A stretch of DNA of 64,000 nt from Anaerolineae bacterium (GTDB taxonomy: Bacteria > Chloroflexota > Anaerolineae > B4-G1 > DUEL01), in assembly GCA_025060135.1 (NCBI GenBank), contig JANXCY010000013.1, forward strand, positions 2,203 to 66,202, in the 5' to 3' direction. A program made the translations under genes and the position numbers. Below are positions 3,305 through 59,516 of the stretch, in pieces. Each line of letters opens with the position of its first letter. Within the stretch, counting starts at the first letter, position 1. Under the pieces are notes generated by a model. It did not search any database. It was not told the DNA's origin and was given only the letters and a program-made list of their open reading frames with translations.

Positions 3305-3667
3305 ATGCCGGAATTCGTCAATCCATTCAGCGGGAAAGTCCCCGAGCGGAAACTGACCCTGGAGGAACTGATCCGGGCCATCCGCCTGAACATTGCGGCC
3401 GAACACGAGGCCGTCCACCTCTATATGGCCCACGCCAATGCCACCGACCACCCTCTGGCCAAGAAGGTTCTCATTGACATTGCCAACGAGGAGCGGGTCC
3501 ACATCGGTGAGTTTGAGCGCCTGCTGGAGATTCTCACCGGCGACGAGGCGAAATGGCTGGCGGAGGGGAAGGCAGAAGTGGACGAGATGGCCGCCGAACT
3601 GGTCGGTTTCTCCCCCGCGAAGGGCGCGGGCGAAGAGCCGACGATCGGCGCTTTGCGCGAGTCGTGA
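3305..3667 (+). CDS. Encapsulated ferritin-like protein (EncFtn/Flp cargo) with a C-terminal encapsulin cargo-loading peptide.
   Basis: The motifs EHEAVHLY and IANEERVHIGEFERLL are ferritin-like di-iron ligands as in EncFtn. The C-terminus ...EEPTIGALRES resembles the Family-1 cargo-loading peptide (TVGSLR-like). It sits immediately upstream of the shell gene. Confidence 0.75.
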   Translation: MPEFVNPFSGKVPERKLTLEELIRAIRLNIAAEHEAVHLYMAHANATDHPLAKKVLIDIANEERVHIGEFERLLEILTGDEAKWLAEGKAEVDEMAAELVGFSPAKGAGEEPTIGALRES

Positions 3668-3679
3668 GAGGAGGCCCCA

Positions 3680-4468
3680 ATGGCGAACAAGTATCTGGGT
3701 CGCGAAGGTGCTCCGTTTGGAGAGGAGGTTTGGGCCGCGCTGGACGCAGCGATGATAGAGGCGGCGAAAAGCCAACTGGCGGGCCGCCGGCTTCTGCCCC
3801 TGGAAGGACCCTACGGCCTGGGCCTGAAAGCGATCTTCTTGCCCGAGGAAGAGGTAGCCTCAGGGGTGTTCGTGAGCAAAACCCTCCCTCTGGTCTTCCT
3901 GGTGGAGGAATTTGTAATACCCCTGCGCGATATCGCGGCCTATGAGCGGGAAGGCCTGGCCCTTAACCTACAGCCAGTGGCTCAGGCCGCCCTTGCCGTG
4001 GCCTGTCGGGAGGACGAATGGATCTTCCACGGTGCGGCGGGTGTGCCTGGCCTCCTGAACGCTTCGGGCGTCCAGAAGATGAAACTCTCCGACTGGAGCC
4101 CGGTCGGCGCAGCGATGGATGATCTTATCCGAGCCGTTACCATATTGGACGAGACGGGCTTTCACGGCCCTTACGCCCTGGGCCTGGCTCCTGCCCGCTA
4201 CAACCTCCTCTTCCGTCGCTATCCCGATGGCCCGATGACCGAACTGGATCACGTCCGGACCCTGGTAACCGGCGGTATCGTCAAAGTCCCCATCCTGAAA
4301 GATGGCGGCGTCCTGCTGGCTGTGGGTCGCCAGTACGCCTCCATCATCCTGGGCCAGGACATGCATGTCGGCTTCATTGGGCCGGATGATGAGGGACTGG
4401 AATTCACCGTCTCCGAGAGCCTGGCTCTGCACCTCAGAGTGCCAGCCTCGGTGTGCGTGCTGGAATAA
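3680..4468 (+). CDS. Family 1 encapsulin nanocompartment shell protein (HK97 fold, linocin M18-like).
   Basis: GRRLLPLEGPYGLG and IILGQDMHVGFIGPDDEGLEFTVSESLAL align with the T. maritima encapsulin motifs GRKFVDVEGPYGWEY and LILGQDLSIGY. It lies 13 nt after EncFtn. Confidence 0.85.
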   Translation: MANKYLGREGAPFGEEVWAALDAAMIEAAKSQLAGRRLLPLEGPYGLGLKAIFLPEEEVASGVFVSKTLPLVFLVEEFVIPLRDIAAYEREGLALNLQPVAQAALAVACREDEWIFHGAAGVPGLLNASGVQKMKLSDWSPVGAAMDDLIRAVTILDETGFHGPYALGLAPARYNLLFRRYPDGPMTELDHVRTLVTGGIVKVPILKDGGVLLAVGRQYASIILGQDMHVGFIGPDDEGLEFTVSESLALHLRVPASVCVLE

Positions 4469-7779: not shown

Positions 7780-7861
7780 GTGAAATTGCTCCCGATTTTC
7801 CCCTGTCTCCTGTCGCAGTATGGCCCTGTTCTTTCAGATGGAGTGAAGGGCCTGGCCGAAG

Positions 7862-10603
7862 TTACCGTCCCTGCGCGGCCCGCAGGAGCAGACTCCCAAT
7901 CCGGGCCGCATCCTCCGGGATAGAGGCATGCTCCAGGAGGACGGCGACCGCATAGCGGGGCGCGTTCGCCGGCGCGACGCCCAAAAACCAGGCATGGGGC
8001 GGTCGGCCTGCCCCTGCCATCGCCGTCCCCAGGTGGCCAAGGGCATCCGGCGAGAAAGACTCCCAGGCCGCCAGCAGGACGCGCGCTGCATCCGGGGGCA
8101 GGACTTCCCGGGGGCGGCCCGGGACCTCTGGCGTCTGCCATGTCCCATCCGGCGCCTGGACCTCCAGCACCCGGCGCGGCACCGGCATCACCCCGTTGTT
8201 GGCCAGCGTCGCCGCCACCAGCGCCATCCGTAGCGGGGAGACGGTCAGGTCGCCCTGACCGATCGCCTCCCGCGCCGCATCAGCGGACATCCCCGCCACC
8301 CGGGGGGGAGGGGTCGGAAGAGCCGGCGACATGCCCTCCGGAGGTCGCGCCCGGGTTTCAGGAGGCCGTTCTGCGGGCACGGCCTCCATCAACCCCCAGC
8401 GAAGGAAGCCTTCCTCCAGCCTCTCTGGGCCCAGTTGCTCCCCCAGGACGGCGAAAGGGCCCGGGCAGGCGGCCCGCAGCGCGCCGATCATCCAATCTTC
8501 CGGTGAGACCTCCCCCCGGCAGGTTACCGTTACGCCGTTGATGAACAGGGTCGCAGTCAGGTTAGGAGCAGGGTTGTAGAGAGTGGTCAGGCCGCGCCGG
8601 AGGGCCTCCGCCAGGACCACCGTCTCCAGCGCCGCCCCGGGCTGGTAGGGCTGAAGGGCCCGGTTCAGCAACGGGCCGCCCGGGTCCTCCCGTAATTGCT
8701 CCCATTCCTCTTCCAGACGGTTGGGATCAAAGGTCGGCGAGGAGGCCATCGCCAGCACCTCGCCGCTGGAAGCGTCCAGCAGCACCACTGCGCCCGTCCG
8801 GCCCGCCAGGGATTGCGCGGCCAGCCGCTGGAGGACAACGTCCAGTGTCAGCCGCACATCCTGGCCATGGGAAGGGCGATGAAGGAGCGCATCCCATGCC
8901 GTCTCCCAGGCGGAACGGTCGGCCTCGCCGCGCAGGACCCGGTCCCATTCCGCCTCGATCCCGCTGGTGCCGTGGCGCAGACTGGCGTAGCCGACCACCG
9001 GCGCCGCCGTCGGTTCCGGATAGACGCGGGTAACCCACCCGTCTGGACTCACCGTCGCGTCGGCCAGGACAACTCCGTTTCGGTCCAGAATCTGGCCCCG
9101 GACGATGCGTTGCTCGTATTCCACCCGGCGGGGGTTATCCTCCCGCGCTACCAGCCATCCGGCCCGCAGAACCGACCAGTAGCCGCAGGCCAAAGCCAGG
9201 ATGGCCAGGGCGGCGCTCAGTCCCAGGGCCAGGTGGCGAACGGGCCGGACCCACTCGCGATCGCGGGGAGCCGGGGTGGTTCCCCCAGAGACCACCAGGA
9301 GCAGGCCCAGGGCGATGAACGTCGCCAGCAAGGAAGAGCCTCCGTACGAGAGGAAGGGCAGGGTTACCCCGGCAATGGGCACCAGTTTGACGTTCGCGGC
9401 CATGATGATCCAGGCCTGGACTCCCCAACCAGCGGTCAACCCAGCAGCCAGGAATCGCTCAAAGGGGCGGGGGGCCCGCAGGGCGACCCGCAGTCCCCGC
9501 AGCAGGAGAACCCCGTAGAGGGCAATGAGGGCCAGCGTTCCCAGGAGGCCAAACTCTTCGGCAACGGCAGCGAAAACGAAGTCAGTGTGAACGGCAGGGA
9601 TATAGGTAGGGCGGCCCAGGCCCAGGCCCTGGCCGAAAATCCCCCCGGCCCCGAAGGCCAGCAGGCTCTGGACGATCTGAAAGGCTTGGTCAGGGGCAGC
9701 AGGCCAGGGGAAGAGCCATATCTGAATCCGCAGCGCCACTCGCTCGGAGCCATAGTATCCCGCCATCCCGACCAGGAGGAAGAGCGCCAGTCCCCCGATC
9801 AGATACCCCCACTGGCTGGTGGCCAGGTAGAGCATGGCCAGGAAGGTGAAGAAGAGGAGCATCGCGGCGCCCAGGTCCTGCTGCGCGGCCAGGAGGAGAA
9901 GGGTGAGGCCGAACATCACCAGCAACGGGCCGACGTAGGCCAGCGGGGGAAGGTTGAGAGGACCAATGCGGTGTCCCGTCGCCTTCAGGAGTTCCCGCCG
10001 CTCAGCCAGATAGGAGGCCAGGAAGACGACCAGGAGAAGTTTCAGAGGCTCTGAGGGCTGGAAGTACGCGCCGCCGATGCCCAGCCAGAGACGGGGGCCG
10101 GCTCCACCGGGGTTGACGCCCAGGACCAGGGTGGCGGCCAAGAGGAGCAAACCCGCAAAGAGCCAGGTGTAGCGGTAACGGCGCAGCCAGCGCAGGGGAA
10201 CCGGCTCCCGCACCCCGATCTGGACGACGGCGATCATCGCTAGAGTGGAGAGGAGAAGCCAGGTCGCCTGGCGGGGGAGGAAATTGGGTGCCAGACGGGC
10301 CACCATGAGCAGGCCCCAACCGCTCAGGAAAGCGGCCACTGGAAGGAGCAACGGGTCTCGGTGGGGCAGGCAACGGGAGAAAGTGGCGTGGGCAGCGGCA
10401 AAGGAGAGGATGAAAGAAAGGAGCAGGCCAATGGCCCGCGCGAGACCCAGAGCGGGAGAGGCCATCAGCAGGGTGGCCGTGCCTGCCGCCACGAAGAGGA
10501 GGGCCAGCAGGAGCAACCCTCGCTCTCGTCGGACAACGAAGGGCGGATAAGGTTCAGTAGGATCCAACATAGGCGTCAGCCGATCCAGGTATCGCAGACG
10601 CAA
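7862..10603 (-). CDS. SEDS (FtsW/RodA/SpoVE) peptidoglycan polymerase fused to a class-B PBP-like domain whose catalytic motifs are degenerate.
   Basis: The N-terminal ~450 aa is polytopic with the SEDS signature GVTLPFLSYGGSSLL. The C-terminal region aligns with bPBP transpeptidases (NRALQPYQPGAALETVV vs NRAV..EPGSTVKP; IGQGDLTVSPLRMA..ATLANNG; GHLGTA..HAWFLGVAP vs GKSGTA..HAWF.GFAP). SxxK reads AALE, SxN reads AAC and KTG reads HLG. Confidence 0.8.
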   Translation of the reverse strand: MRLRYLDRLTPMLDPTEPYPPFVVRRERGLLLLALLFVAAGTATLLMASPALGLARAIGLLLSFILSFAAAHATFSRCLPHRDPLLLPVAAFLSGWGLLMVARLAPNFLPRQATWLLLSTLAMIAVVQIGVREPVPLRWLRRYRYTWLFAGLLLLAATLVLGVNPGGAGPRLWLGIGGAYFQPSEPLKLLLVVFLASYLAERRELLKATGHRIGPLNLPPLAYVGPLLVMFGLTLLLLAAQQDLGAAMLLFFTFLAMLYLATSQWGYLIGGLALFLLVGMAGYYGSERVALRIQIWLFPWPAAPDQAFQIVQSLLAFGAGGIFGQGLGLGRPTYIPAVHTDFVFAAVAEEFGLLGTLALIALYGVLLLRGLRVALRAPRPFERFLAAGLTAGWGVQAWIIMAANVKLVPIAGVTLPFLSYGGSSLLATFIALGLLLVVSGGTTPAPRDREWVRPVRHLALGLSAALAILALACGYWSVLRAGWLVAREDNPRRVEYEQRIVRGQILDRNGVVLADATVSPDGWVTRVYPEPTAAPVVGYASLRHGTSGIEAEWDRVLRGEADRSAWETAWDALLHRPSHGQDVRLTLDVVLQRLAAQSLAGRTGAVVLLDASSGEVLAMASSPTFDPNRLEEEWEQLREDPGGPLLNRALQPYQPGAALETVVLAEALRRGLTTLYNPAPNLTATLFINGVTVTCRGEVSPEDWMIGALRAACPGPFAVLGEQLGPERLEEGFLRWGLMEAVPAERPPETRARPPEGMSPALPTPPPRVAGMSADAAREAIGQGDLTVSPLRMALVAATLANNGVMPVPRRVLEVQAPDGTWQTPEVPGRPREVLPPDAARVLLAAWESFSPDALGHLGTAMAGAGRPPHAWFLGVAPANAPRYAVAVLLEHASIPEDAARIGSLLLRAAQGR

Positions 10604-10621: not shown

Positions 10622-13588
10622 CTACCTCCAGAGCGGGACGGCCTCCCACCTCCGGTCGTCCATCGGGGGGAGCGGGGTCATCCGGAAGCGCTCATAGGCG
10701 ACCAGCGTGGCCCGCACTCTGCCGCCCGTCCAGTCCGCCGGAATCAGGATGAGGTGGCGATCCCGGACCCGGGAGCCTGCAATCCATTTCAGTGTGGGGA
10801 CGGTGCCCAGTGCGGGCTGGCAATCATGCGCGCCCAGGAAGCGGCCCGTCTCGTCCGTCAGTCGAACACTGGTGGCGTCGTCGGTCGTCAGCGCGCGCAG
10901 CCCCACCAGCATCACGTCCACCGTCATCCCCGCGCCTGGAGCGACGGGGGAGGCCCGCACGCCCACCACCGCCATCTCGTCCCCCAGGGGCACAAAGCGG
11001 AGGTCGCCTGGCGGGATGACCAGCGATATCCGCTGCAGGGGCCAGCCCCACGGGCCCGCTGCCGTTCGCACCTGGCCGGGTCCGTCGGTTAGGGAAAGGA
11101 GAAGCAGGCCGCGCACCGTCCCGGGGAGGTCCACCGCGACGGTCTGATATGCGCCCGGGGCGAGGGCCGGGAGGGTGGCAGTCCCCTCCGCCCCGCCGGA
11201 AGCCCGGAGATGCAGAGTCCCGCCCGCCGTCGGGCCGCGCCAGTGGAGATAAACCCGCAAGGTGTCCGGCGCCGTCCGGTCGTAGTCGGCGCCGACCAGG
11301 ACGGGCCCTCCCGCATAGGGAACGCGCTGGGGATGGAGGGTGAAAGGCATACGGGTCGCAGACTCCACGTCCAGTTCGGTCAGAAGGGTGAACGACTCCC
11401 CGCCAGCCGTGAGCAGCGGTTCAAATCCGGCTGCGGAGACGGTGTACGCGCCCAGGAGCAGCCGGTAACGACCGGGCCGGAGAGTAGGGTAGAGAGGAAG
11501 CACCAGCCGCTCCCAGCGAATTTCGCCCGGAGCGACGTCCGTGCCCAGGTAACGGTCGGCCTGGGCCACCTCGCGCCCGTCGGCATCGGCCAGGCGCAGG
11601 GTGAAGGACGGCGCGCGGTCGGAGGGGGCCGTCCGTCTCCAGGCCAGGACAACCTCCAGGGCCTGCCCAGCCCGGAACGGCGGGGCAGGCAAGCGGTATC
11701 CCAGCAACTGGACGCCCTCGGCAAAGGCGATGTCCGTCCGGAAAATGGGCGCAGTGATTTCCCGAGCGGGTCGCCGGTGGAGGCGAAAGCCCCAGCCCAC
11801 CGGCTCAGCGCTGTAACCGGGGAAGTCGTAGAAGTGGGTCAGCAGGAGAGGACGGTCGGTGCCGATCTCTTCCACCCACCGCAGCCAGGTGGCCCCGTAG
11901 TCCTCCCCGACGACGGGATAGACGTACTCCACCCGCACATCGGGACGCCGTCCTTCCACTTGCTGGAGGTACCAGAGCGGGGTCGCCCAGTGCCAGTCGG
12001 CCAGGATGACGGCGCCCGGAGGAGCGGCCTCCAGAAGCGGCCCGACCGTCTGGCGGGTAGATGTATCGGCGGCCAGTTCGGTGATGCTCCAGTGTGCCTG
12101 GAGGTTCAGGACCCCTCCCCAGAGAGCCAGCGCCGCCAGAGGAAGTTGGAGTTTCACCACGAAGACGCGAAGACACGAAGTAAATTGATTATATTTTCTT
12201 TGTGTCTTTGTGTCTTCCTGGTTTGTACGATTTCTCCACCCGGCGGGGAGGAGGCCGACGGAGAGGGCAATCGGGAGGTATGCGGGCATCAGATATTCCA
12301 CCGTTTGAGGGGCCCGGTAGGTCAGGGTAACGTAGGTGTGGAGGAGGAAACTGCCCGCCAGCAGGAGGAAGAGCCGCCAATCTCGCCGGAGGACAGCCAG
12401 CAAGCCCAGAGCCGCCAGGGCCAGGAGGAGGCCGTTGAACTGGAAGGTGAGGAGCGTTGGGAGCAGCGCCAGACGGTGAGGGAAGTCCTGGGGATTGGCA
12501 AAGGCGAACATGTCCCCGGCGAACCCTTTCGCCAGGACGTGCCAGAGGAAGCCCTGGAGGGTATCCAGGTCGGGCGGGGCCAGGGGCGCGCCGGCCGCGC
12601 CGCGAATGGGCAGGTAGGCCAGCGGCACGAGCAGCGCGGCCAGAAAGACCAGGACAGGGCGCCACCACCGGCAGGGTTGCAGGAGCAGGCGGGGGTCCAC
12701 GTTCAGCAGATAGAGGATAAAGAAGACGCCGACGAAGGCCAGGGAGGGATGATGCCCGATACCCAGTCCCAGCGCCAGCGCCAGGAGGAGCAGCGCCTGG
12801 TCCCGCCCACCCATTCCCCATGGGCTCTCCGTTGCGAAGCGGGCTAGGGCGTAAAAGGCCAGGGCGGCGAAGAAGAGGGTGGGCATACGGATGTTGGCGA
12901 TAGCGGCCTGGGCCCAGAAGGTAGTGGCGGAGCCCAGCGTCAGTGCGGCAGCGAGGCCCCCCATGCGGGCCAGGAGGGGGGAGGCGCCCAGGTGGCGGGC
13001 CCAAAGGCGGGTCGCTCGGGCCAGCCAGAGCAGGGTAACGACCGCCATCGGCACGCTCATCAGGTTTAGCCGCAGCGCCGGGGGGCCGATGGGGACCAGT
13101 CGGATGAAGAGATGCCCGGCCATCGTATAGAGGGGGTAACCGGGCGGGTGGGCCACACCCAGGAGCGCGGCGGCCAACTGGAACTCGCCGCTATCGGCGG
13201 GGAGGACGTCCCGGGAAAGCGTGGCCAGGTAGAGGGCCGAAAACAGGACGCAGACTCCCGCGTCGGCCAGATGGTCGGCCTGGCGGTCGGAGAGGAGGGG
13301 CAGGCGAGCGCTCTCCCGCAACGATTCTATGGCCCAGACCAGGCAGGCAATGTTTGCCCATGCCAGAGGCAAAAGCCGCCAGGGCCAGAGGACGGCGACC
13401 AGGAGCACCAGCGCGGACCACCCGGTGATCGGAGCCCGGCGGCGGGTTAGGAGAAATCCCCCCGCCCCTCCGGCCAGTGCCAGTGCCAGGATGAAGCAAA
13501 CCGGCAGGGGAATGTCCGGGATCTCCAGCAGGAAGCGAGCCACTACCAGGCCCAGGAGGATGCCGTAGCCGACGGTGAGCCGACGCAT
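10622..13588 (-). CDS. DUF2723/TMEM260-like GT-C-fold glycosyltransferase (988 aa). The C-terminus carries repeated beta-rich modules.
   Basis: DSGEFQLAAALLGVAHPPGYPLY is the DUF2723 signature. It has more than 10 TM helices. The C-terminus carries about three modules similar to those ending the GT-C array proteins (LLGY...LEVVLAWRR...DGREVAQADRYLG...RPGRYRLLLGAY). An 18-nt gap separates it from the downstream SEDS-PBP gene. Confidence 0.7.
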   Translation of the reverse strand: MRRLTVGYGILLGLVVARFLLEIPDIPLPVCFILALALAGGAGGFLLTRRRAPITGWSALVLLVAVLWPWRLLPLAWANIACLVWAIESLRESARLPLLSDRQADHLADAGVCVLFSALYLATLSRDVLPADSGEFQLAAALLGVAHPPGYPLYTMAGHLFIRLVPIGPPALRLNLMSVPMAVVTLLWLARATRLWARHLGASPLLARMGGLAAALTLGSATTFWAQAAIANIRMPTLFFAALAFYALARFATESPWGMGGRDQALLLLALALGLGIGHHPSLAFVGVFFILYLLNVDPRLLLQPCRWWRPVLVFLAALLVPLAYLPIRGAAGAPLAPPDLDTLQGFLWHVLAKGFAGDMFAFANPQDFPHRLALLPTLLTFQFNGLLLALAALGLLAVLRRDWRLFLLLAGSFLLHTYVTLTYRAPQTVEYLMPAYLPIALSVGLLPAGWRNRTNQEDTKTQRKYNQFTSCLRVFVVKLQLPLAALALWGGVLNLQAHWSITELAADTSTRQTVGPLLEAAPPGAVILADWHWATPLWYLQQVEGRRPDVRVEYVYPVVGEDYGATWLRWVEEIGTDRPLLLTHFYDFPGYSAEPVGWGFRLHRRPAREITAPIFRTDIAFAEGVQLLGYRLPAPPFRAGQALEVVLAWRRTAPSDRAPSFTLRLADADGREVAQADRYLGTDVAPGEIRWERLVLPLYPTLRPGRYRLLLGAYTVSAAGFEPLLTAGGESFTLLTELDVESATRMPFTLHPQRVPYAGGPVLVGADYDRTAPDTLRVYLHWRGPTAGGTLHLRASGGAEGTATLPALAPGAYQTVAVDLPGTVRGLLLLSLTDGPGQVRTAAGPWGWPLQRISLVIPPGDLRFVPLGDEMAVVGVRASPVAPGAGMTVDVMLVGLRALTTDDATSVRLTDETGRFLGAHDCQPALGTVPTLKWIAGSRVRDRHLILIPADWTGGRVRATLVAYERFRMTPLPPMDDRRWEAVPLWR
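12160..12218. repeat. Low-GC palindromic (MITE-like) element inserted in-frame inside the DUF2723 gene.
   Basis: Left arm CGAAGACGCGAAGACACGAAG, an 18-nt AT-rich loop TAAATTGATTATATTTTC, and right arm TTTGTGTCTTTGTGTCTTCC. The arms match at 17/20 as an inverted repeat, and each arm contains a duplicated AAGACAC. The element is about 35% GC in a roughly 68% GC gene. It encodes the hydrophilic peptide RNRTNQEDTKTQRKYNQFTSCLRVFVVK between hydrophobic helices. Confidence 0.4.
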
Positions 13589-20850: not shown

Positions 20851-21732
20851 ATGTCCGAAGACCTACTCCAACGGGTTGCTCCGCCTCCCGAGCCCGCCAG
20901 CCCGGGCCTGCGGCTGCGGACCGCCCGGGAGGCCCGGGGGCTATCACTGCAGGAGGTGGAAGCCGCCACCCGCATTCGCGCCCGCTACCTGGAAGCCCTG
21001 GAGACGGGGCAGTACAACGTGATGCCCGGCGGAGAGGCCCAGGTGCGTGGATTCCTGCGCCGCTACGCCACCTTTCTGAACATCCCCCCGGAAGAAATCA
21101 TCGCCCTCTATGACCGGGAACATCAGCGGGAACCCGCCCCCTCCGCGCCTCCTCCAGCCCGACCCGGAGCCCCCTGGGGCCCCCGGATGGCTTCAACCCG
21201 CCAGCCGGTCCAACGGCCGCGTCCGGAAACGGCGGGGCGCCAGCCCCGAATGGTGGTCTTGCTAAGCCTGATAGCGTTGATCGGAGCCATCGCCCTGGGA
21301 GGGACATGGCTGATGACCCACCCGGGGCGATTTTTTTCCGGCTCCCGGGCCACACCGACCGTCGGCGCCTTCCGTCCCCCCGCATTCCCCTCTCCTATGG
21401 CCACGGCCCCCCTGGCCTCGCCGACCCCTGTTCCCACCCCCGCGCCGCCCCCTACCTTCCCCGTCTCCACCGACGCCGTAACCGTTACTCTGGAAGCGCG
21501 CGAGCACGTCTGGGTCCGGGTGACGGTGGACGGCTTCACTGCTTTTGAGGGCATGCTCTCCCCCGACAACCCCCGGACATGGATAGGACAGGAAATGGTG
21601 GTGGTGGAGACCGGCAACGGGGCCGGGGTGGTCGCCGTGGTGAACGGCCAGTCCCAGGGCCCCCTCTGCGGGCGCGGCGAGGTCTGCACCCGGGGGTGGG
21701 AACCCACCGGGGAAATCCCGCTCCAGAGATGA
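20851..21732 (+). CDS. rodZ: RodZ-like cytoskeleton protein (XRE HTH, single TM, Pro-rich linker, C-terminal DUF4115).
   Basis: The N-terminal HTH is LRTAREARGLSLQEVEAATRIRARYLEALE. A TM helix LLSLIALIGAIALGG and a P/T/A-rich linker follow. The C-terminus reads VWVRVTVDG...VNG. Confidence 0.6.
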   Translation: MSEDLLQRVAPPPEPASPGLRLRTAREARGLSLQEVEAATRIRARYLEALETGQYNVMPGGEAQVRGFLRRYATFLNIPPEEIIALYDREHQREPAPSAPPPARPGAPWGPRMASTRQPVQRPRPETAGRQPRMVVLLSLIALIGAIALGGTWLMTHPGRFFSGSRATPTVGAFRPPAFPSPMATAPLASPTPVPTPAPPPTFPVSTDAVTVTLEAREHVWVRVTVDGFTAFEGMLSPDNPRTWIGQEMVVVETGNGAGVVAVVNGQSQGPLCGRGEVCTRGWEPTGEIPLQR

Positions 21733-37610: not shown

Positions 37611-39173
37611 ATGTACTCTGAGACGACCCCACGGAACACGAAAAACGCAACACGGATGAAACGCCGTCGCACCGACTGGGCCGCCCTTCAGGGCTGTGCG
37701 CTCACCGGATTCGTACTGCTCTGGCTGATCGGAGCCGGACTGGTGGGGTATACGTTTGTTGCGCTGGGCCGGCAGCCGACGCCCACCCCGGTGCCGCCAC
37801 CGACTCCTCCGCCCTCTCCTACGCCGACAGCGACCCTCACTCCGACCCCTACGCCCAGCCCAACGCCGACCTTCACCCCGACACCGATGCCCAGCCCGAC
37901 CCCAACTCCAACGCGTACTGCGACGCCGACTCCCCGCCCCACTCTCCCCCTGCTCTTTCCGCCGGGCACCATGGTTATTCCTTCTCCCTTCCCGATGCCC
38001 ACGCCCGACCCCAACGCGCCCCCTGATGCAGCCATCCCGACGCCCGTGAGTCCCATCCCCGTCGCCGCCGACGCCGTCAACATCGTCGTCTTGGGCAGCG
38101 ATAAACGCCCCCATTGGACGGAATGGCACACCGACGCCATCCACATCGTCTCCATCCAGCGGAACCGGGCTGTCGTCTCCGTCATCTCCATCCCGCGCGA
38201 CCTCTATGTCTACATCCCCGGCGACGGGATGAACCGCATCAACATGGCCGACTACCACGGCGAGGCTACCGGCTACCCGGGCGGCGGGTGGGGCAACCTG
38301 CGGGATACGCTCCTCTACAACCTGGGCATCCGCGCGGACTACTACGTCCGCACCGACTTTGACGGCCTCATCGGCATCGTAGACGCGCTGGGCGGCATAG
38401 AAGTCCCCGTCCACTGCCGCCTGAGCGACCACTGGCCTTATCCCGACGCCAGCGGACAGTACCCCATCTTCACCCTGGAACCGGGCGTCCACCATCTGGA
38501 CGGCGAACAGGCCCTCTGGTACGCCCGCTCCCGGATGACGACCAGCGTCTTCTCCCGGGACCGCCGTCAGCAACAGGTCTTGCAGGCCATCTGGCACAAA
38601 ATCCGGGACGGCGGCTGGCTGGCCCAAATTCCCACCCTTTGGGACCAGTTCCAGAGCATGTTTGTGACCAACTTAGACCTGCCCACCGTCCTGGACCTGG
38701 CACGGGTGGCCTTTTTCCTGCCGGAACAGAACATCCGCTATTACAATATTGGCGCGCAGCATGTAACGCCCTGGGTAACCTCCTGGGGCGGGAACGTCTT
38801 CGTGCCCCGGTGGGAGGCGATAGAGCCACTCCTGCGGGAAGCCATGGCGCCGCCTTCCGAAGGCCGCCTGACCCGAACCTTTATGCCCGTGGAAGTCTGG
38901 AACGGGACCCCCAACCCGGACTGGGACCTGCTGGCGGTGGACCGGCTGATCCGGGCAGGCTTCCCGGCCATCCCAGGTCAACCGGATCGCCGGGATTACC
39001 CCCAGACGATGCTCATTGTCTTCCGGGAGCATGCCAAGGGGATAGGCGTGGAGGACCTGAAACGGATGTTCGGGATTCCTGAGGAGCGGGTGTCCTACGA
39101 GCCTAACTGGGGCACCGCCTACGGCTTCCGCCTGATCATCGGCGCCGATTATCAGACGTGCTATGAGAGATAG
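37611..39173 (+). CDS. LCP (LytR-CpsA-Psr) family glycopolymer transferase with a long Pro/Thr-rich linker.
   Basis: A TM anchor is followed by a PT-repeat linker of about 75 aa (37760-37990), then an LCP catalytic domain (NIVVLGSDKRP...SIPRDLYVYIPG...NRIN) and a LytR_C-like end. Confidence 0.8.
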   Translation: MYSETTPRNTKNATRMKRRRTDWAALQGCALTGFVLLWLIGAGLVGYTFVALGRQPTPTPVPPPTPPPSPTPTATLTPTPTPSPTPTFTPTPMPSPTPTPTRTATPTPRPTLPLLFPPGTMVIPSPFPMPTPDPNAPPDAAIPTPVSPIPVAADAVNIVVLGSDKRPHWTEWHTDAIHIVSIQRNRAVVSVISIPRDLYVYIPGDGMNRINMADYHGEATGYPGGGWGNLRDTLLYNLGIRADYYVRTDFDGLIGIVDALGGIEVPVHCRLSDHWPYPDASGQYPIFTLEPGVHHLDGEQALWYARSRMTTSVFSRDRRQQQVLQAIWHKIRDGGWLAQIPTLWDQFQSMFVTNLDLPTVLDLARVAFFLPEQNIRYYNIGAQHVTPWVTSWGGNVFVPRWEAIEPLLREAMAPPSEGRLTRTFMPVEVWNGTPNPDWDLLAVDRLIRAGFPAIPGQPDRRDYPQTMLIVFREHAKGIGVEDLKRMFGIPEERVSYEPNWGTAYGFRLIIGADYQTCYER

Positions 39174-42862: not shown

Positions 42863-43060
42863 ATGGAGTGCAAACAGGAACGCAATCTAACCCGCTGTAC
42901 CTGCACCTATGAACCCTGTCCCCGCAAAGGGCTCTGCTGCGAGTGTCTCTTCTACCATCTGAGCCACGACGAACTGCCCGGGTGCGTCTTCCCGCCCGAA
43001 GCGGAGCGGACTTACAACCGGTCCAAACGGTATTTTGCGCAGATTTACAGCAGAAAGTAA
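42863..43060 (+). CDS. Small cysteine-rich protein (65 aa).
   Basis: MECKQERNLTRCTCTYEPCPRKGLCCECLFYHLSHDELPGC has eight Cys. The gene has lower GC (~55%) than its surroundings. It is the first gene before the GT-C array. Family recognition is approximate. Confidence 0.45.
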   Translation: MECKQERNLTRCTCTYEPCPRKGLCCECLFYHLSHDELPGCVFPPEAERTYNRSKRYFAQIYSRK

Positions 43061-43068
43061 CTGCGCTG

Positions 43069-45339
43069 ATGGGAACGACAACCGCCACGGGGTCGGGATC
43101 AGAAACGGATCGCAGGATAACTCTCGCTGCTGTTGGTGTGGTGATCGTTTTCCTGACGATTGGCCTCTGGTATACCCTGTGGAACCCGATCGGGGAGGGA
43201 GTAGACGAGGGGGACCACTTTGAGTATGTGCGCTACATCAAAGAGCGCCGTGCGCTTCCCATTCAGCCCTGGCAAGACAACGGTCGGCCCCTGCTGGTCA
43301 GTATGGGACATCACCCTCCCCTCTACTACACCCTTCTTGCCATCGGTATAGCCTGGATCGACACCCGGGATGCACCGGATGTTCTGATTCGGAATCCTCA
43401 CTTTGTGTGGGGGGTGGATCATCCTCGCAATGGGTGGAACGTGTATCTCCACTCACCGGCGGAGAAATGGCCTTGGCGCGGGACAGTACTGGCGTTTCAT
43501 GTCGGACGAGGGTTGACCCTGCTATTCGGAGCCCTAACCCTGTGGGCCGTTTATCGGATTGGTCGCCTCCTGATTTCTGACTATCCCTGGATCGCGGTAA
43601 CCGGGATGGCCTGGCTGGCTTTCAACCCCTCGTTCATCTTTATGTGCAGTGCCATTCACCACGATGCTCTGATGGCTGCCCTGTACACGGCCGGAATGTG
43701 GTGGCTGGTACGCCTCTTTGACCAACCATGCACCCCCCGAGAAGGGATGATGGGTGGCCTCCTTCTGGGGGCGGCTATGTTGACCAAACTCTCCGGGCTC
43801 AGCCTCGCGCTGGTTTATGGATGGGGTTTTCTGCTGCTTGGCATTTCGCGCAAATCGTTTCGTCCGATTCTGCCCGGAATGATGACGACTTTCGGGGTTG
43901 CTCTTCTGGTCTCCGGCTGGTGGTATGGGCGCAACTGGGCCCTTTACGGCGACCCCCTGGGTTGGGAAATGTACCGTTCCATCTTCTGGTTCAATTTCCG
44001 CTCCACTCCCTTTACATGGGACACCTTCGTCCATGAGCTTCTCTATCAGACCGCACAAACCTTCTGGGGCGCCTTCGGGTTTATGCACATCACGCTTCCC
44101 CCAACCATCTGGTGGACGCTCTGGAAGATCGTGGCCGTCCTCACAGGGATCGCCGTAATCGCGATCCTTCGCCGACCCTATCGTTTTTTTAAGGAGAAGC
44201 GATGGGCGCCATGGTTGGGAATGGCGGGGGGATTCCTTTTTCTTTTCGGAGCGCTGATCCGAAACGCTATAGCAGTGGGCGGAGCCGGACACGCCCGATA
44301 TCTCTTTCCAGGTGTAACCGTCCTGGTCTTGCTGTGGGCCCTAGGGACGCACGCCCTGACCGCCTTTCGCTTCCAGCCCCTGCTGACAGGATTGGTCTCC
44401 CTGGGACTGGCCCTGTATGCGGTGTGGGTCCCCTACCAGTTTGTGATCCCCCTGTATCCATTACCCGAGATCGCGTCCGAAAAAGAAAGCGCATCGGCGG
44501 ATTCCCTTCATATATGCTTTGCGAGCGCAGTCTGTATCCGTTCCGGAAACCTGATCCCCCAGGATGCTCCGGGCGCTTATGTGCTGACCCTCTACTGGGA
44601 AGCATTGCCGGGGGATCGCCCGGACCTGTTTGCCCATCTGCGCGTTCAGGGGGAAGACGGAACAACTCTGATCAAGGACGCTTTCTGGCCCATTCCCAGT
44701 TTCTCCACCATAGCCTGGGAACCGGGCACCATATATCGGACTCGCCATCTCCTACAACTTCCTGGCGGTACGCCCCCGGGCACCTTTATTCTGGAAATGG
44801 CCCTGACAGTGAATCGGGATGGCGAGCCCCTCCCGGTGCGGACAGTAACCGGAGAGAAGGGGGAGGGCTTTGCTCCTATTATGCGCCTCACCCTGAATCA
44901 AGCCGTGCCCCTATCGGTATCTCCTGAGATTTCCCGAACGGAAGAATTGGAATACCGGATTCGTCTGCTGGGATATTCGCTGGGAAAGCGGACCTGGCAT
45001 CCGGGGGAGACGATAACGCTCACACTGTTCTGGCAACCCCGAGAAGCGATTCAGCCCAACCTGGTCGTCTTTGTGCATGTCCTGGACAAGCAGGGGAATC
45101 TTGTTGCCCAACACGACGGAGTGCCCGACCAGGGAAGACGTCCGACCCCCTTCTGGCAGCCAGGTGTCCTCGTGGTAGATTCCCACCCCGTGCCTCTCCC
45201 CGCAGATTTACCTCCTGGCGATTATGCGTTATGGGTAGGGATGTACCGGTGGCCTGAACTCCAACGGCTTCGGATACAGGAAGGAGCGGCTGCGGGGAAT
45301 GACCGCATTTTCCTGGAAACCATCCAGGTGAGACCGTGA
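43069..45339 (+). CDS. GT-C glycosyltransferase (ArnT/PMT GT39/GT83-like) with two C-terminal beta modules.
   Basis: More than 11 TM helices. The first periplasmic loop carries DE in GEGVDEGDHFEYVRYI. The C-terminus has two copies of the shared module (YVLTLYWEAL...FAHLRVQGEDG... and LLGY...LTLFWQP...FVHVLDKQGNLVAQHDGVP...LPPGDYALWVGMY). The start is taken at M43 of the ORF-track ORF. Confidence 0.7.
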   Translation: MGTTTATGSGSETDRRITLAAVGVVIVFLTIGLWYTLWNPIGEGVDEGDHFEYVRYIKERRALPIQPWQDNGRPLLVSMGHHPPLYYTLLAIGIAWIDTRDAPDVLIRNPHFVWGVDHPRNGWNVYLHSPAEKWPWRGTVLAFHVGRGLTLLFGALTLWAVYRIGRLLISDYPWIAVTGMAWLAFNPSFIFMCSAIHHDALMAALYTAGMWWLVRLFDQPCTPREGMMGGLLLGAAMLTKLSGLSLALVYGWGFLLLGISRKSFRPILPGMMTTFGVALLVSGWWYGRNWALYGDPLGWEMYRSIFWFNFRSTPFTWDTFVHELLYQTAQTFWGAFGFMHITLPPTIWWTLWKIVAVLTGIAVIAILRRPYRFFKEKRWAPWLGMAGGFLFLFGALIRNAIAVGGAGHARYLFPGVTVLVLLWALGTHALTAFRFQPLLTGLVSLGLALYAVWVPYQFVIPLYPLPEIASEKESASADSLHICFASAVCIRSGNLIPQDAPGAYVLTLYWEALPGDRPDLFAHLRVQGEDGTTLIKDAFWPIPSFSTIAWEPGTIYRTRHLLQLPGGTPPGTFILEMALTVNRDGEPLPVRTVTGEKGEGFAPIMRLTLNQAVPLSVSPEISRTEELEYRIRLLGYSLGKRTWHPGETITLTLFWQPREAIQPNLVVFVHVLDKQGNLVAQHDGVPDQGRRPTPFWQPGVLVVDSHPVPLPADLPPGDYALWVGMYRWPELQRLRIQEGAAAGNDRIFLETIQVRP

Positions 45340-47561
45340 GGCCCTGTTTCAGGATCGCACGCACATTTCTTCACCGCATATCTCCCGACGGGATGGCTTG
45401 CGCCTTCCTTCTCGGAGCAGCAGCCCTCTTTTTCTGGCCCCTCTGGGTCCTCGGCCATCGCTTCCCCAAAGGGAGCGGCGACCTATGGGGGCTCTGGTAT
45501 CCCGTCTGGTCCTTCGTAGCCCACTGGCTGCGCCAGGGCGTGTTCCCCCTGTGGGATCCTCTGATGATGGGAGGCGATCCCATCTTTTCGGATGTCCAGT
45601 ATGGCCTTCTGAACCCTCTCAACTGGCCCCTCTTTCTGACATCTCCCATTCCCCATTGGATGGTCCTGCTGCGGGGAGCCTTTCCTCTCTGGCTGGCTGG
45701 AGCCGGCCTGTACCTCTATCTGCGGTCCTCTTCGGTCTGGCGTTTGAAACGGGCATCCGCGCTGGTTGGGGCAACCGCATACATGTTCTCTGACCCTTTC
45801 GTTGTTCACCTGGGGAATCCTCCATTCAACGATGCGATGGCCTGGTGGCCCTGGGTTTTGCTGGGGGTAGACCGGGCTATCCACTCGGCGCGGAACATCC
45901 CCTTGGCGGCCCTGGCTGTTGCCCTGCCGATACTCTCCGGACATGGAGAGATGACTCTCTATGCAGCCTTTGCGACCGGTCTATATACTCTCTGGCAGAT
46001 GGCAGAAGGAGGTTGGCCAGAGATATTCTATCGGATGGGTCGCCTGTTACTGGCGGGTGTATTGGGCGTTGCTCTGAGTGCTCCTGCACTGCTCCCAGGC
46101 ATAGAACGGCTTCCCTTTACTGAACGAGCGGGTACTCCATGGGAACTCCGTCGCGGTTATGAATTTCCACCCTCTATGCTGGTGGACTTTTTGAGCCCTG
46201 CTTTCCATGGCCGAGGGCCAGACGAATTCTGGCCCTCATGGAATCCGGTAGAAAGCGGGTATGTGGGAGCTGTAGCGCTGTACTTGGCCGGGATAGGCCT
46301 CGTGGGAAATCACCGACACCGGCGGACCTGGTTTCTGGTGGTGCTGGGACTCCTGACCTATGCGCTGGCTCTGGGGTATCGCGGGCCTATATACCCGCTT
46401 GTGAATCGCCTTCCGCTCATAGAAGGTTCGCTCAAAACCGCTCGCAGCATTTTTCTTCTTTCCTTCGCCCTGGCCATCCTGGCTGCCCAGGGCGTGGAAT
46501 GCCTGGGCCGCCGCTGGCGAGGCACTCCCTTTTGGGCCCTCGGCCTGCTCCTGGGCGGCCTTCTCCTCGGGTGGCAGGCCCCGGCATGGGTCTCCGCCGT
46601 CCCGGAGGGCCTGCCCCGCCTGCGCGCGCTGACCGGCCTGCGGTTCGCCGCCCTCCTGGCCGGAACCACCGCCTTCCTGGGCTGGGCCGCCAACCGGGGC
46701 CACCGCTGGGGCCGGGCTGGCCTGCTCCTCCTCCTGCTGGCTGAACTGGTAGCGACCGGCGCGCTGGCGGAAACGGAGCCCACCCCGAAACCCGACTCAA
46801 CCCACACCGCCGCCCTGGCCTTCCTGCGCGCCGACCCCGGCTGGTTCCGGGTGGACGTGGACCCCACGGCGCGCGGCCTCTGGCCCCATGTCTTCCTGCA
46901 GATGGAAGGGTTTGAGGTCCCCCAAGGTATGGGCAACGCCATGGACCTGCGCAGTTTCAACATCCTCCGCTGGCGCATCCCCTCCGCGACCCACCCCGCC
47001 TACCGGATGCTCGGCGTCAAATACCTCATCGTCCCCAAGGGCGCGCCTCCAGGCGGCGAGGGCATCTGGCCCGTCTTCATAGACGATCCCACTGTGGACA
47101 TCCACCTCAACACCCTGGCGCTGCCGCGCGCCTGGCTGGTTTACCGCACGGAGGTCGTGGAAAGTTACGGAGAGGCGCTGGAAAAGGTGCTGGACGAGAA
47201 CTTCCGCCCGGAAGAGGTCGCCGTCGTCCAGAACGGGCCCCAACTGAACGGGACGGGAGAGGGAAGCATCGAAGTGGGCTATTACGGCCCCAACGACGTG
47301 GTCTTCTTCGTGGAGACGAGTGCCCCGGCTCTGCTGGTCCTCTCCGATACCTTCTATCCCGGCTGGCAGGCGACGGTAGACGGCCAGCCGGTGCCGGTCT
47401 ATCCGACCAACGCCGCTTTCCGGGGGGTACAGGTGCCGCAGGGACGCCATCGGGTGGAGATGCACTTCCGACCCCGGAGCCTGATGATGGGCCTGGGGAT
47501 GGCCGGAGCAGGAGGACTGGGATGCCTCACGCTATGGTTGATAAGGAAACGAGACCCATGA
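45336..47561 (+). CDS. yfhO: YfhO-family GT-C membrane glycosyltransferase.
   Basis: The YfhO C-terminus is LSDTFYPGWQATVDGQPVPVYPTNAAFRGVQVPQGRHRVEMHFRP, followed by a final TM. It overlaps the upstream gene by 4 nt (GTGA). Confidence 0.75.
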   Translation: MRPCFRIARTFLHRISPDGMACAFLLGAAALFFWPLWVLGHRFPKGSGDLWGLWYPVWSFVAHWLRQGVFPLWDPLMMGGDPIFSDVQYGLLNPLNWPLFLTSPIPHWMVLLRGAFPLWLAGAGLYLYLRSSSVWRLKRASALVGATAYMFSDPFVVHLGNPPFNDAMAWWPWVLLGVDRAIHSARNIPLAALAVALPILSGHGEMTLYAAFATGLYTLWQMAEGGWPEIFYRMGRLLLAGVLGVALSAPALLPGIERLPFTERAGTPWELRRGYEFPPSMLVDFLSPAFHGRGPDEFWPSWNPVESGYVGAVALYLAGIGLVGNHRHRRTWFLVVLGLLTYALALGYRGPIYPLVNRLPLIEGSLKTARSIFLLSFALAILAAQGVECLGRRWRGTPFWALGLLLGGLLLGWQAPAWVSAVPEGLPRLRALTGLRFAALLAGTTAFLGWAANRGHRWGRAGLLLLLLAELVATGALAETEPTPKPDSTHTAALAFLRADPGWFRVDVDPTARGLWPHVFLQMEGFEVPQGMGNAMDLRSFNILRWRIPSATHPAYRMLGVKYLIVPKGAPPGGEGIWPVFIDDPTVDIHLNTLALPRAWLVYRTEVVESYGEALEKVLDENFRPEEVAVVQNGPQLNGTGEGSIEVGYYGPNDVVFFVETSAPALLVLSDTFYPGWQATVDGQPVPVYPTNAAFRGVQVPQGRHRVEMHFRPRSLMMGLGMAGAGGLGCLTLWLIRKRDP

Positions 47562-49462
47562 AGGCCCACCGTCTTGTCCTTCGGACCGGCCTGCTGGCCC
47601 TGCTCTTGGTGGCCTGGGCCCTGCGGACGGCGACCCTCACCCTCCAGAGCATGTGGATTGACGAGGTGATGGCCCTCTACTTCACGCGTGGGACCTTCAC
47701 CGAAACCCTCAGTACCATCGTCCGCCCAGAGCATAACGGCCCCCTCTTCTATCTCCTGCTCTTCGGGTGGCGGCACCTGGTGGGGGATTCCGATTTCGCC
47801 GTCCGCTACCTTTCCGTCCTCTTCTCCGTCTTGACTCTCCCCCTCCTCTATCAACTGGCTCGTCGCTTGCTGACCGAGCGGGCGGCGGCGCTGGCCCTGT
47901 GGCTGGCGGCCTTCTCGCCTTTCGCCCTCTGGTTTGCCCAGGAAGCGAAAATGTACGCCCTGCATATGTGGGCCGCCACCGCCTCCACTGTGGCTCTCCT
48001 GGAAGCGTTCCGAAAAGGCCGCTGGTGGCGCTGGGCCATCTACGCTCTCCTCCTCTCCCCCACCCTCTACAGCCACTTCTTCGGGGGATTCCTGGCCCTG
48101 GCCCAGGGAGTAATGAGCGGCATCCTGGGCTGGGGACGCTGGCGGCGCTGGCTGGCCTATGGGCTGACTGTGGCCCTCCTGGCTCTGGTACATGCCCCCC
48201 TGCTCCGGGTGGCCTGGAACGTGGTCCGTTATTACCAGCATCGGGACATCTGGCGGTACTTCGTCCCACTGAAAGACATCGCCCGGGACCTATTGGGCCA
48301 GTACTTCTACCGGCTCTCCTACCTGGAGGTTACCCCCTGGCTCCTCCTGCTCCCGGCCATCCTCCTGGCCTGGGGAGTCTCAGCCCTCTTTCGTTCCCAC
48401 CGAAGGGACGCCTGGATTTTGCCCGTCCAGGCCCTGTTACCCGTGCTGGTGTTCTACCTCGTTTCCTACCGAGCCCCGGTCTACTCGGCCAAGTACCTCT
48501 CGGCGATCGCCCCGGCGGTCTGGATTCTGACGGCCTGGGGTGCCGAACGGATGGCTTGCCTCTGGCGACCGCTGGGCCTGAGCGCGGCCATCCTGGGACT
48601 CCTGACCGTCAACGGTATCGCCCGCGATCTGACCCGCCCTGCTTTCCAGCGGGGGGATTGGCGCTTCATCGCCCGCTACGTAGAGACCCACGAGGGGCCC
48701 AACGACATCGTCGTGATCTCCGCCTTCTACTGCGAGCATGCCTTCCGGCGGTACTACCGGGGCCATTCAGCCATCTTCCCCTACGAAGCCAATCCCTACG
48801 ACCCGGAGTTTATCTATCGGGGATTGCCGGAAAAGTACGACCGAATGTGGCTGGTCCTTCATCACGACCAGGCCATGGCGCCCGGGAACCGGCTCATAGA
48901 AGCCGCCGACGCGATGTTCCCCCGCCTCACCGAACAATACCCCAACGCCGGACAGATCACGCTGATCGGCTACCAGTTGCGGCCGACGATCCCAGCACTG
49001 CCAGAAGAGGCCCGTCCTCTGGAAGTCTGTTTTCAGAACGGCATCTGCCTGGCAGGCTATCAGGTGGATATGAACGCGCTCCCGGCAAGGGAAAACCTCT
49101 CCCATCCTCCCAGCAACTGGCTCCACGTGACCCTCTATTGGAGACGGACGGCGTCCTTTGACGGCGTCCCCTTCCGCCCTCTGATCCGGCTGATCGATGA
49201 GACCTTTAACGTCTGGGGAGGGAATATGAAGCGCAACCCAGACCTGCTGGACCGCTACCCGCCCCAAGAGTGGCCGACTGACCGGCTGGTGGAGGACCAT
49301 TACGACCTCAACCTGAACCCGTTCACACCTCCCGGAACCTATCGCCTGGAGGTGAGCCTGGCGGTCCACGGGGAGGAGCATCAGCGCGTCCCGCTGGCCG
49401 ACCCGCTACCGGGCATGCCACCCGACCGCTGGGTGTTTGAGAACATCCGCGTCCTCCCCTGA
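47558..49462 (+). CDS. GT-C glycosyltransferase (ArnT/PMT-like) paralog.
   Basis: The DE motif is MWIDEVMALYF. It has 11-13 TM helices and the shared C-terminal module (WLHVTLYWRR...LIRLIDE...TPPGTYRLEVSLAVHG). The start MKAHRLVL overlaps the yfhO stop (ATGA). Confidence 0.7.
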   Translation: MKAHRLVLRTGLLALLLVAWALRTATLTLQSMWIDEVMALYFTRGTFTETLSTIVRPEHNGPLFYLLLFGWRHLVGDSDFAVRYLSVLFSVLTLPLLYQLARRLLTERAAALALWLAAFSPFALWFAQEAKMYALHMWAATASTVALLEAFRKGRWWRWAIYALLLSPTLYSHFFGGFLALAQGVMSGILGWGRWRRWLAYGLTVALLALVHAPLLRVAWNVVRYYQHRDIWRYFVPLKDIARDLLGQYFYRLSYLEVTPWLLLLPAILLAWGVSALFRSHRRDAWILPVQALLPVLVFYLVSYRAPVYSAKYLSAIAPAVWILTAWGAERMACLWRPLGLSAAILGLLTVNGIARDLTRPAFQRGDWRFIARYVETHEGPNDIVVISAFYCEHAFRRYYRGHSAIFPYEANPYDPEFIYRGLPEKYDRMWLVLHHDQAMAPGNRLIEAADAMFPRLTEQYPNAGQITLIGYQLRPTIPALPEEARPLEVCFQNGICLAGYQVDMNALPARENLSHPPSNWLHVTLYWRRTASFDGVPFRPLIRLIDETFNVWGGNMKRNPDLLDRYPPQEWPTDRLVEDHYDLNLNPFTPPGTYRLEVSLAVHGEEHQRVPLADPLPGMPPDRWVFENIRVLP

Positions 49463-49551
49463 ATAGAATTGATGGAGACCAAGTCCGTTGCTGCTCTGGG
49501 GAAAATCCACTCTGTCCGCGTTCATCCGCGTCCCATCTCCGATGAGGTCTT

Positions 49552-51489: not shown

Positions 51490-51498
51490 AGGAGCAAA

Positions 51499-53532: not shown

Positions 53533-53538
53533 CGACCA

Positions 53539-59511: not shown

Positions 59512-59516
59512 GTCTC

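Follow-up and report, generated by a model that had tools for sequence, protein, structure and literature searches.

The stretch of DNA analysed here (the window) comprises 64,000 nucleotides of a contig from an Anaerolineae bacterium (JANXCY010000013.1). Its main subject is an open reading frame (ORF) of 913 codons at 7862–10603 on the minus strand, intact in frame throughout, that encodes a polymerase of the SEDS family (named for shape, elongation, division and sporulation) fused to a PbpA-type pseudo-transpeptidase, that is, to a bPBP (penicillin-binding protein of class B) module whose catalytic motifs have all been replaced. An earlier model-made reading of the letters (the sequence-only reading) had already proposed that one 913-residue ORF joins a SEDS domain to a class-B-like PBP domain. 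The ORF list bears this out, as do homologues and three Pfam domains, each over its curated cutoff: FTSW_RODA_SPOVE at residues 108–439 (E = 2.8e-72), PBP_dimer_2 (PF21922) at residues 502–583 (E = 2e-13) and Transpeptidase (PF00905) at residues 604–827 (E = 9e-21). The chain runs from the SEDS glycosyltransferase domain (residues 84–440; 9284–10354 on the minus strand, as for all parts of this gene), identified by PF01098 and by matches to solved chains, through a cytoplasmic linker with a single bPBP membrane anchor (residues 441–486, helix 449–479; 9146–9283) recognized from the structural model and hydropathy, to a PbpA-type pedestal (residues 490–600; 8804–9136; PF21922) and a catalytically degenerate transpeptidase-fold domain (residues 601–913; 7865–8803; PF00905). 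The count of 913 residues starts from a TTG codon, and the ATG at 10570 (M12) would give 902. Because the closest homologues with full-length N termini begin at M12, and because a 100% identical NCBI product from an Anaerolineae metagenome-assembled genome (MAG) has 902 residues, the true gene is probably 7862–10570.

The transpeptidase motifs were located by residue-level alignment to solved PbpA-type structures from Eggerthella lenta (4mnr), Mycobacterium tuberculosis (3un7) and Atopobium parvulum (4n1x and 4ra7), and their coordinates were confirmed by translation. Opposite the STFK or SSFK of these four chains stands A657-A-L-E660 (8624–8635), in which the nucleophilic Ser of SxxK has become Ala and the general-base Lys has become Glu, in agreement with the AALE read earlier. 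The former KTG is now H857-L-G859 (8027–8035), with Lys and Thr both gone, and was likewise read correctly as HLG. The former SxN, aligned with S-C-N in the M. tuberculosis protein and S-S-N in that of E. lenta, is A712-C713-P714 (8462–8470): Ser has changed to Ala and Asn to Pro, and C713 is the ancestral 'x' residue found in the S-C-N of M. tuberculosis PbpA. Here the sequence-only reading was right that the motif is dead but off by one in its register, since its AAC corresponds to residues 711–713. The comparison with PBP structures that it had recommended thus finds the residues at the S, K, S, N and K positions all substituted.

A residue check independent of any alignment found no SxxK and no K[TS]G anywhere in the protein. 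The only lysines are K188, K207 and K406, all in the SEDS part, and because residues 481–913 contain none, neither motif can hide in the PBP module; an intact Ser-x-x-Lys elsewhere in the domain, sought as a refutation, is absent. Lysine is extremely scarce in the whole chain, at 3 of 913 residues where the PBP module by itself has 40 Arg, an avoidance that stems partly from the GC-rich codon bias (~69% GC here). Given the loss of Ser and Lys from SxxK, of Ser and Asn from SxN and of Lys and Thr from KTG, the module is predicted to be incapable of forming an acyl-enzyme, so that neither peptidoglycan cross-linking nor beta-lactam binding should be expected of it.

The fold, by all indications, is kept. 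A full-length AlphaFold2 model (64 homologues) has a mean predicted local distance difference test (pLDDT) score of 90.8 and a predicted template modelling score of 0.85, is disordered only at the first ~20 N-terminal residues and in a Pro-rich insertion at residues 745–775, and places most of the pedestal above a pLDDT of 90. The best sequence matches of the C-terminal half in the Protein Data Bank (PDB) are E. lenta 4mnr (1e-34) and M. tuberculosis PbpA 3un7 (1e-32), and the best Foldseek match is again 3un7, with a template modelling (TM) score of 0.78 normalized to the target and 29% identity; TM scores to PbpA-type structures, among them the transpeptidase domains from E. lenta and A. parvulum, span 0.76–0.80. 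The module therefore has the layout of a class B PBP of the PbpA type (anchor helix 449–479, PF21922 and PF00905 above their cutoffs, and the fold match) and fails all three catalytic signatures, SxxK, SxN and K[TS]G. It also carries the marks of a pseudoenzyme: a retained fold, lost catalytic residues, purifying selection and persistence across a clade. With catalytic residues replaced, a Lys-free module, a kept fold and intact SEDS residues, the earlier proposal of a catalytically dead pseudo-transpeptidase tethered to a glycan polymerase holds up.

The polymerase half is apparently in working order, judging from its catalytic residues. Its PF01098 match reaches 244 bits (cutoff 26.4) and covers profile positions 37–351 of 356, and solved FtsW and RodA chains match the N-terminal half at 6e-35 to 4e-33. 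In the alignment to 6bar_A, H253-T254-D255 lies opposite H339-T340-D341, so that D341 (9581–9583, codon verified) is the intact counterpart, within the H-T-D-F motif, of Thermus thermophilus RodA Asp255, the essential Asp of that enzyme. The SEDS catalytic residues E185, K188 and D341 are all intact; like Q182 and P183, they show no variation across 64 fused homologues, whether dead or intact. NCBIfam matches of the fusion protein all remain below threshold, including pbp2_mrdA and the three SEDS models, whose scores (cutoffs in parentheses) are 268.7 (337.5) for ftsW, 212.8 (448.8) for spoVE and 199.9 (336.7) for rodA. By homology the protein thus falls within both the SEDS and the PbpA superfamilies but, with every one of these matches under its cutoff, in no curated orthologue. 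A RodA-like role is suggested by the fhaAB…SEDS–pbpA loci of relatives described below and by a RodZ-like gene in the window.

The degenerate motifs recur far beyond this one genome. All of the best 120 database matches (57–100% identity) are fused, and all 120 are degenerate at the three motifs, among them 81%-identical proteins from Thermoflexales and Anaerolineae MAGs; this settles for close relatives the earlier question of whether orthologous fusions keep SxxK, although more distant intact fusions do exist. A phmmer search with the C-terminal 444 residues returned 751 representatives of 50%-identity clusters below 1e-30, and of the best 150 of these, in which motifs were assessed, ~130 are degenerate, most of them free-standing proteins of 440–490 residues and ~25 of them fusions of 850–940 residues. 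A profile built from free-standing dead members yielded 113 further proteins, not one of which (0/113) has SxxK. Among the labels they carry are Ardenticatenaceae, Anaerolineaceae, Promineifilaceae and Candidatus Leptofilum (this last from a contig of 6.36 Mb), and in NCBI taxonomy these belong to the Chloroflexota classes Anaerolineae, Ardenticatenia and Thermoflexia. Altogether ~390 homologues have degenerate motifs, with the labels Anaerolineae, Thermoflexales, Ardenticatenaceae and Promineifilaceae, and within the sampled family every taxon-labelled dead member is from Chloroflexota.

This recurrence bears directly on the possibility that the substitutions reflect mistakes in sequencing or assembly, or that the transpeptidase part has been drifting neutrally as a pseudogene remnant since the fusion. 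The domain is indeed the least conserved of the three, with a mean identity to close homologues of 57% compared with 68% for the pedestal and 76% for the SEDS domain, and it contains the disordered Pro-rich insertion. Yet the same substitutions appear in hundreds of sequences assembled independently and drawn from NCBI, JGI, ENA and Logan, the reading frame is unbroken over 913 codons, the model folds confidently and the dead family also includes free-standing genes for proteins of 440–490 residues. The ratio of nonsynonymous to synonymous substitution rates (dN/dS) is below 1 in every domain (0.11–0.13 for SEDS, 0.23–0.35 for the pedestal) and is 0.24–0.41 in the transpeptidase fold, rather than ~1, so the dead module is kept under purifying selection. 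Recurrence in 120/120, 113/113 and ~130/150 homologues excludes sequencing error as the source of the substitutions, and we regard artefact or decay as a whole as scarcely credible.

What selection retains can be read from the pattern of conservation. Close homologues share 75 positions of the PBP part at a conservation of 97% or more, and these take in a framework around the old cleft: N647-R648-A649, Y653-Q654-P655-G656, G782-Q783-G784 and H870/W872/F873. A comparison of intact and dead groups gives 38 positions conserved in both, which form the structural core, and 15 conserved in the intact group alone, made up of catalytic residues and positions next to them; the dead group has just five of its own (P714, Q654, D489, R487 and L630). 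Because the intact-only positions are catalytic or adjacent to catalytic residues and the dead-specific ones so few, the pattern is that expected of a catalytic constraint lost from a retained scaffold, with no sign of a new active site.

The replacement residues themselves are constrained among close relatives and variable further out. In 121 close sequences, position 657 is Ala in 103, Thr in 9, Ser in 7 and Val in 2, position 660 is Gln in 79, Glu in 40 and His in 2, and positions 714 and 857 are Pro and His, respectively, in 117 each. Across a broad set of 157 dead-family members, position 657 can be Gly, Ala, Ser, Leu, Thr or Met; position 660 is Gln (92), Glu (24), Ala (11), Tyr (7) or Gly (6), and position 857 is His (88), Tyr (27), Gln (10), Phe (7) or Leu (5) and never Lys. 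P714 is the main residue specific to the dead family, present in 140/157 against Asn in 48/48 intact sequences. C713 and C695 (8519–8521) are the only two Cys of the PBP module; each is present in 121/121 close sequences and 151/157 of the broad dead family, and M. tuberculosis PbpA has Cys at these two positions as well, so that the pair probably forms a structural disulfide.

These distributions weigh on the idea that the module has been re-tooled as a different enzyme, such as a hydrolase or an unconventional transferase, with a new set of residues at work in the former cleft (H857 and E/Q660, for instance). The strong conservation in the close clade of His at the KTG-Lys position and of Glu or Gln at the SxxK-Lys position would fit such a change, as would purifying selection on the domain. 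Neither 857 nor 660 is conserved across the wider family, however, position 657 offers no conserved nucleophile and conservation specific to the dead group is minimal. C713 is a PbpA inheritance, the SxN 'x' residue that faces inward, and is paired with C695. We consider a re-tooled enzyme quite improbable. A new Cys–His site made of C713 and H857 was considered separately and rejected, C713 being the inherited 'x' of SxN and H857 being variable in the wider family.

A ligand-binding sensor is harder to set aside: the dead fold could bind, for example, peptidoglycan stem peptides or nascent strands without reacting with them, and so regulate when and where the polymerase acts. The conservation of at least 97% around the former active site among close homologues fits this idea, as do the constrained replacements in the close clade (Q/E660 in 119/121, P714 in 117/121 and H857 in 117/121). 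The domain also retains its whole length and is modelled with a confident fold, although activation might need no more than the pedestal; a 2025 survey (PMC12516126) reports Chloroflexota proteins that have the pedestal only. Against a sensor stand the variation at positions 657 and 857 in the broader dead family and the mere five dead-specific conserved positions, and the idea overlaps with an activator or scaffold role instead of excluding it. As a separate explanation we judge it unlikely, though well ahead of a new enzymatic activity.

Phylogenetic analysis of 205 PBP modules assigns the loss of catalysis to one branch. On a neighbour-joining tree (without support values), all 48 intact sequences form one clade, and Fitch parsimony assigns a single change to the catalytic state compared with ~24 changes between fused and separate forms, some of which may be gene-calling artefacts that appear as 'separate' forms. 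On these counts catalytic death looks like a single old event and fusion like a labile trait. Intact fusions were found in P0147 and its relatives, two of them labelled Anaerolineae by NCBI, which carry PGSTFK, SCN and KTG, and also in MAGs of Actinobacteria and Armatimonadetes; the neighbourhoods of two intact fusions (L014 and L015) contain nothing informative. Among metagenomic homologues, P0422, P0400, P0398 and P0217 are apparent intermediates between intact and dead, with motif sets such as PGSTFH/GCP/LLG, in which Ser is kept and Lys lost (P0422 has PGSTFH), or SQ/SCN/H. The order of motif loss could be reflected in such sequences.

The unfused members show what was joined. A contig search with a single protein gave four loci, of which one is unrelated and another (L004) holds the split form of the gene pair. 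In all five loci with readable upstream sequence (L004 and L010–L013), the separate dead pbpA directly follows a SEDS gene, with a gap of 7 nt in L004, and the boundary between the two genes in these loci corresponds to the anchor and linker of the fused protein. The gene order is fhaA–fhaB–PNP_UDP_1–SEDS–dead pbpA in L010 and L013 and bactofilin–PNP_UDP_1–SEDS–dead pbpA in L011 and L012. This arrangement is of the same type as the M. tuberculosis locus, whose order is fhaA–fhaB–pstP–rodA–pbpA–pknA–pknB, with the gene for the PstP phosphatase 5′ of rodA; it differs in that four of the five loci (L010–L013) have PNP_UDP_1 immediately before SEDS and that no kinase genes follow. The unfused loci are thus, by gene order, of the actinobacterial rodA–pbpA type, and the gene in the window is accordingly best described as an end-to-end fusion of a cognate pair. 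The PNP_UDP_1 gene, nucleoside phosphorylase-like, lies at 7790–8668 in L010, 3735–4601 in L011, 3794–4672 in L012 and 3754–4635 in L013, with either fhaA–fhaB or a long bactofilin gene on its 5′ side.

Set beside characterized proteins, the PBP module is closest in structure to M. tuberculosis PbpA (Rv0016c; PDB 3LO7, 3UN7 and 3UPN–3UPP; phmmer 1e-32), with which it shares the PBP_dimer_2 pedestal and the cysteine pair equivalent to C695/C713. That protein differs in being a separate polypeptide with STFK, SCN and KTG in place, and the titles of the PDB entries record its acylation in crystals by penicillin G, imipenem and ceftriaxone. E. lenta 4MNR, A. parvulum 4JBF and related entries, the best sequence matches in the PDB, likewise keep SxxK, SxN and KTG, and the A. 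parvulum domain binds beta-lactams in crystals; the module of the window is motif-dead. These E. lenta and A. parvulum entries carry the molecule name 'peptidoglycan glycosyltransferase' and appear to be the transpeptidase domains of SEDS fusions. The two-protein synthases RodA–PBP2 (6PL5/8TJ3) and FtsW–FtsI (8BH1) resemble the SEDS half, which matches them at 1e-28 to 6e-35 with the catalytic Asp conserved; they differ from the fusion in having separate chains, a PF03717 pedestal and an active transpeptidase.

The architecture as such is already known. The 2025 survey (PMC12516126) lists 117 SEDS–bPBP chimeras, which it describes as putative bifunctional synthases of class B, and its SEDS–PBPA_dimer–transpeptidase fusions from Senegalimassilia faecalis and Rhodococcus jostii have the same three parts in the same order. 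The survey gives no attention to catalytic motifs: 'SXXK', 'active site' and 'catalytic serine' each occur 0 times in it. The protein described here shares the three domains by which such fusions are recognized but not the plausibility of both activities, and since the three defining transpeptidase motifs fail, it should not be classed as a bifunctional synthase. In the literature searched, which covered few subscription journals and so leaves novelty unproven, we found neither a natural, conserved pseudo-transpeptidase bPBP nor this Anaerolineae family.

We propose that the dead module serves as a non-catalytic activator or scaffold of the polymerase to which it is tethered, with cross-linking done by other enzymes, and we put the probability of this reading at roughly 60%. 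In two-protein synthases the bPBP membrane helix and pedestal activate the SEDS polymerase. By analogy, in a chain whose SEDS C terminus continues into the anchor, pedestal and transpeptidase fold of its cognate PbpA-type bPBP, the helix and pedestal may activate or scaffold the polymerase allosterically, the chemistry not being what is retained. Cross-linking would then be handed to other enzymes, either an intact PBP elsewhere in the genome or L,D-transpeptidases, for which the protein encoded at 56825–58684 is a candidate. Two bodies of published work are in line with such a division of labour: FtsW polymerase activity needs its cognate bPBP (bioRxiv 10.1101/358663), and catalytic point mutants of Bacillus subtilis PBP2B and Clostridioides difficile SpoVD still support division provided that another bPBP is present (PMC12516126, PMC5656894, PMC12713402). 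The likeness to those mutants lies in an essential bPBP role without chemistry of its own as long as another transpeptidase is at hand; the difference is that they are single point mutants made in the laboratory, whereas in this family the loss occurred naturally and long ago, took in every one of the three motifs and has become fixed across a large clade. The sequence-only reading had spoken of a 'regulatory or scaffolding remnant'; our analysis favours the role it suggested, while 'remnant' understates an old family that exists in fused and separate forms and is under purifying selection.

Several considerations weigh against the activator or scaffold proposal. The activation mechanism is known from SEDS–bPBP pairs with a PF03717 pedestal, and its extension to the PbpA type may not hold. 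The conservation of the old cleft could mean that a ligand is still bound there, which is not what a passive scaffold would require. Our view of other bPBPs, class A PBPs (aPBPs) and L,D-transpeptidases is confined to the 64-kb window, and the tree has no support values, its sampling being skewed to sequences related to the query.

In current models a bPBP has two roles, cross-linking peptidoglycan and switching on its SEDS partner, which have so far been separated only by laboratory point mutants. On the side of evolution, a large natural family that has given up all transpeptidase chemistry and kept the fold, the pedestal and the link to the polymerase is evidence for a non-catalytic role worth keeping by itself. 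That a bPBP can do without chemistry will not shock a specialist, but a whole lineage fixed in such a state is still a useful and unexpected natural experiment, and the dead and intact, fused and separate versions form a comparison set for mapping what a bPBP contributes to the polymerase. In Anaerolineae genomes, labels such as 'penicillin-binding transpeptidase domain-containing protein', 'peptidoglycan glycosyltransferase' or 'bifunctional' are no evidence of D,D-transpeptidase capacity. The dead family also raises the question of how its hosts, filamentous bacteria abundant in sludge, sediments and hot springs, cross-link their wall. Speculatively, and with more doubt than confidence, one may extend the proposal to a Chloroflexota lineage (with the labels Anaerolineae, Ardenticatenia and Thermoflexia) that runs a RodA-type synthase with a non-cross-linking partner, its strands owing all their cross-links to non-cognate enzymes, among which L,D-transpeptidases of the VanW or YkuD type are a possibility. 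If this were true, L,D-cross-linking or an aPBP would be obligatory for elongation, and the synthase would be a natural experiment parting bPBP activation from catalysis, intrinsically insensitive to beta-lactams.

The window itself offers some context for this proposal. No second SEDS or PBP gene was detected within it by tblastn and by Pfam scans of 30 further ORFs. At 56825–58684 (+), a 619-residue protein has two PG_binding_4 domains and a VanW domain with a GGGICQ cysteine, an architecture also seen in Ldt4 and Ldt5, L,D-transpeptidases of C. difficile (PMC11348318). The protein is a candidate alternative cross-linking enzyme on the same genome fragment. A RodZ-like protein (HTH_25 and RodZ_C) is encoded at 20851–21732 (+) and suggests an organism with a Rod or elongasome-type system.

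Further features of the fusion protein lie outside its catalytic domains. Two extra N-terminal hydrophobic helices (residues 21–78; 10370–10543) precede the canonical SEDS core, as seen in the AlphaFold2 model, in hydropathy (helices 21–48 and 50–78, with Kyte–Doolittle values of 2.0–2.5) and in the homologue alignment; the alignment to Pseudomonas aeruginosa FtsW begins only at residue 84. This hairpin is kept in homologues and is also found in the unfused SEDS protein of L004. Predicted membrane helices number 12 + 1, that is, the ten expected for SEDS and the hairpin, followed by the bPBP anchor, whose helix 449–479 (hydropathy 1.94) comes after 12 hydrophobic helices. On this helix count the anchor would carry the chain from inside to outside and the PBP module would lie outside the membrane. 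The Pro-rich disordered insertion in the transpeptidase fold (residues 745–775; 8279–8371; pLDDT 46–59) has a mean identity of 24% among homologues, is gapped and aligns poorly to solved PbpA structures; it is fast-evolving.

Upstream of the fusion gene and in the same orientation lies a TMEM260/DUF2723-like gene (10622–13588, minus strand). Its orientation had been described correctly by the sequence-only reading, and the 18-nt gap given there applies only from the TTG start, the distance from its stop to the ATG at 10570 being 51 nt. By tblastn, a DUF2723 homologue is not found beside the fusion gene in relatives of 81% (L001) or of 65% and 57% identity (L006–L008), so we treat the adjacency as incidental. 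A functional link between the two genes was rejected, their adjacency not being conserved even in the 81%-identical relative. In one 57%-identical relative (L007/L008, 1–9161) the fusion adjoins Phage_GPD, GPW_gp25, Baseplate_J and Tail_P2_I genes, a contractile-injection or phage-baseplate-like set that is probably an unrelated neighbour.

Elsewhere in the window, six large ORFs of 645–798 residues occupy 42943–55491 (+), one with a YfhO match, one with a PMT_2 match and four without a Pfam hit; they are putatively membrane-located and may be related to GT-C glycosyltransferases. A LytR_cpsA_psr ligase and RmlD are also encoded (among 37611–39173 (+) and 58663–59655 (−)), and together with the TMEM260/DUF2723-like gene these suggest a window rich in functions for cell-envelope glycopolymers or protein glycosylation. 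Finally, an encapsulin shell gene (Linocin_M18) at 3680–4468 (+) is preceded by a 120-residue ORF without a Pfam hit (3305–3667), which possibly encodes the encapsulin cargo.

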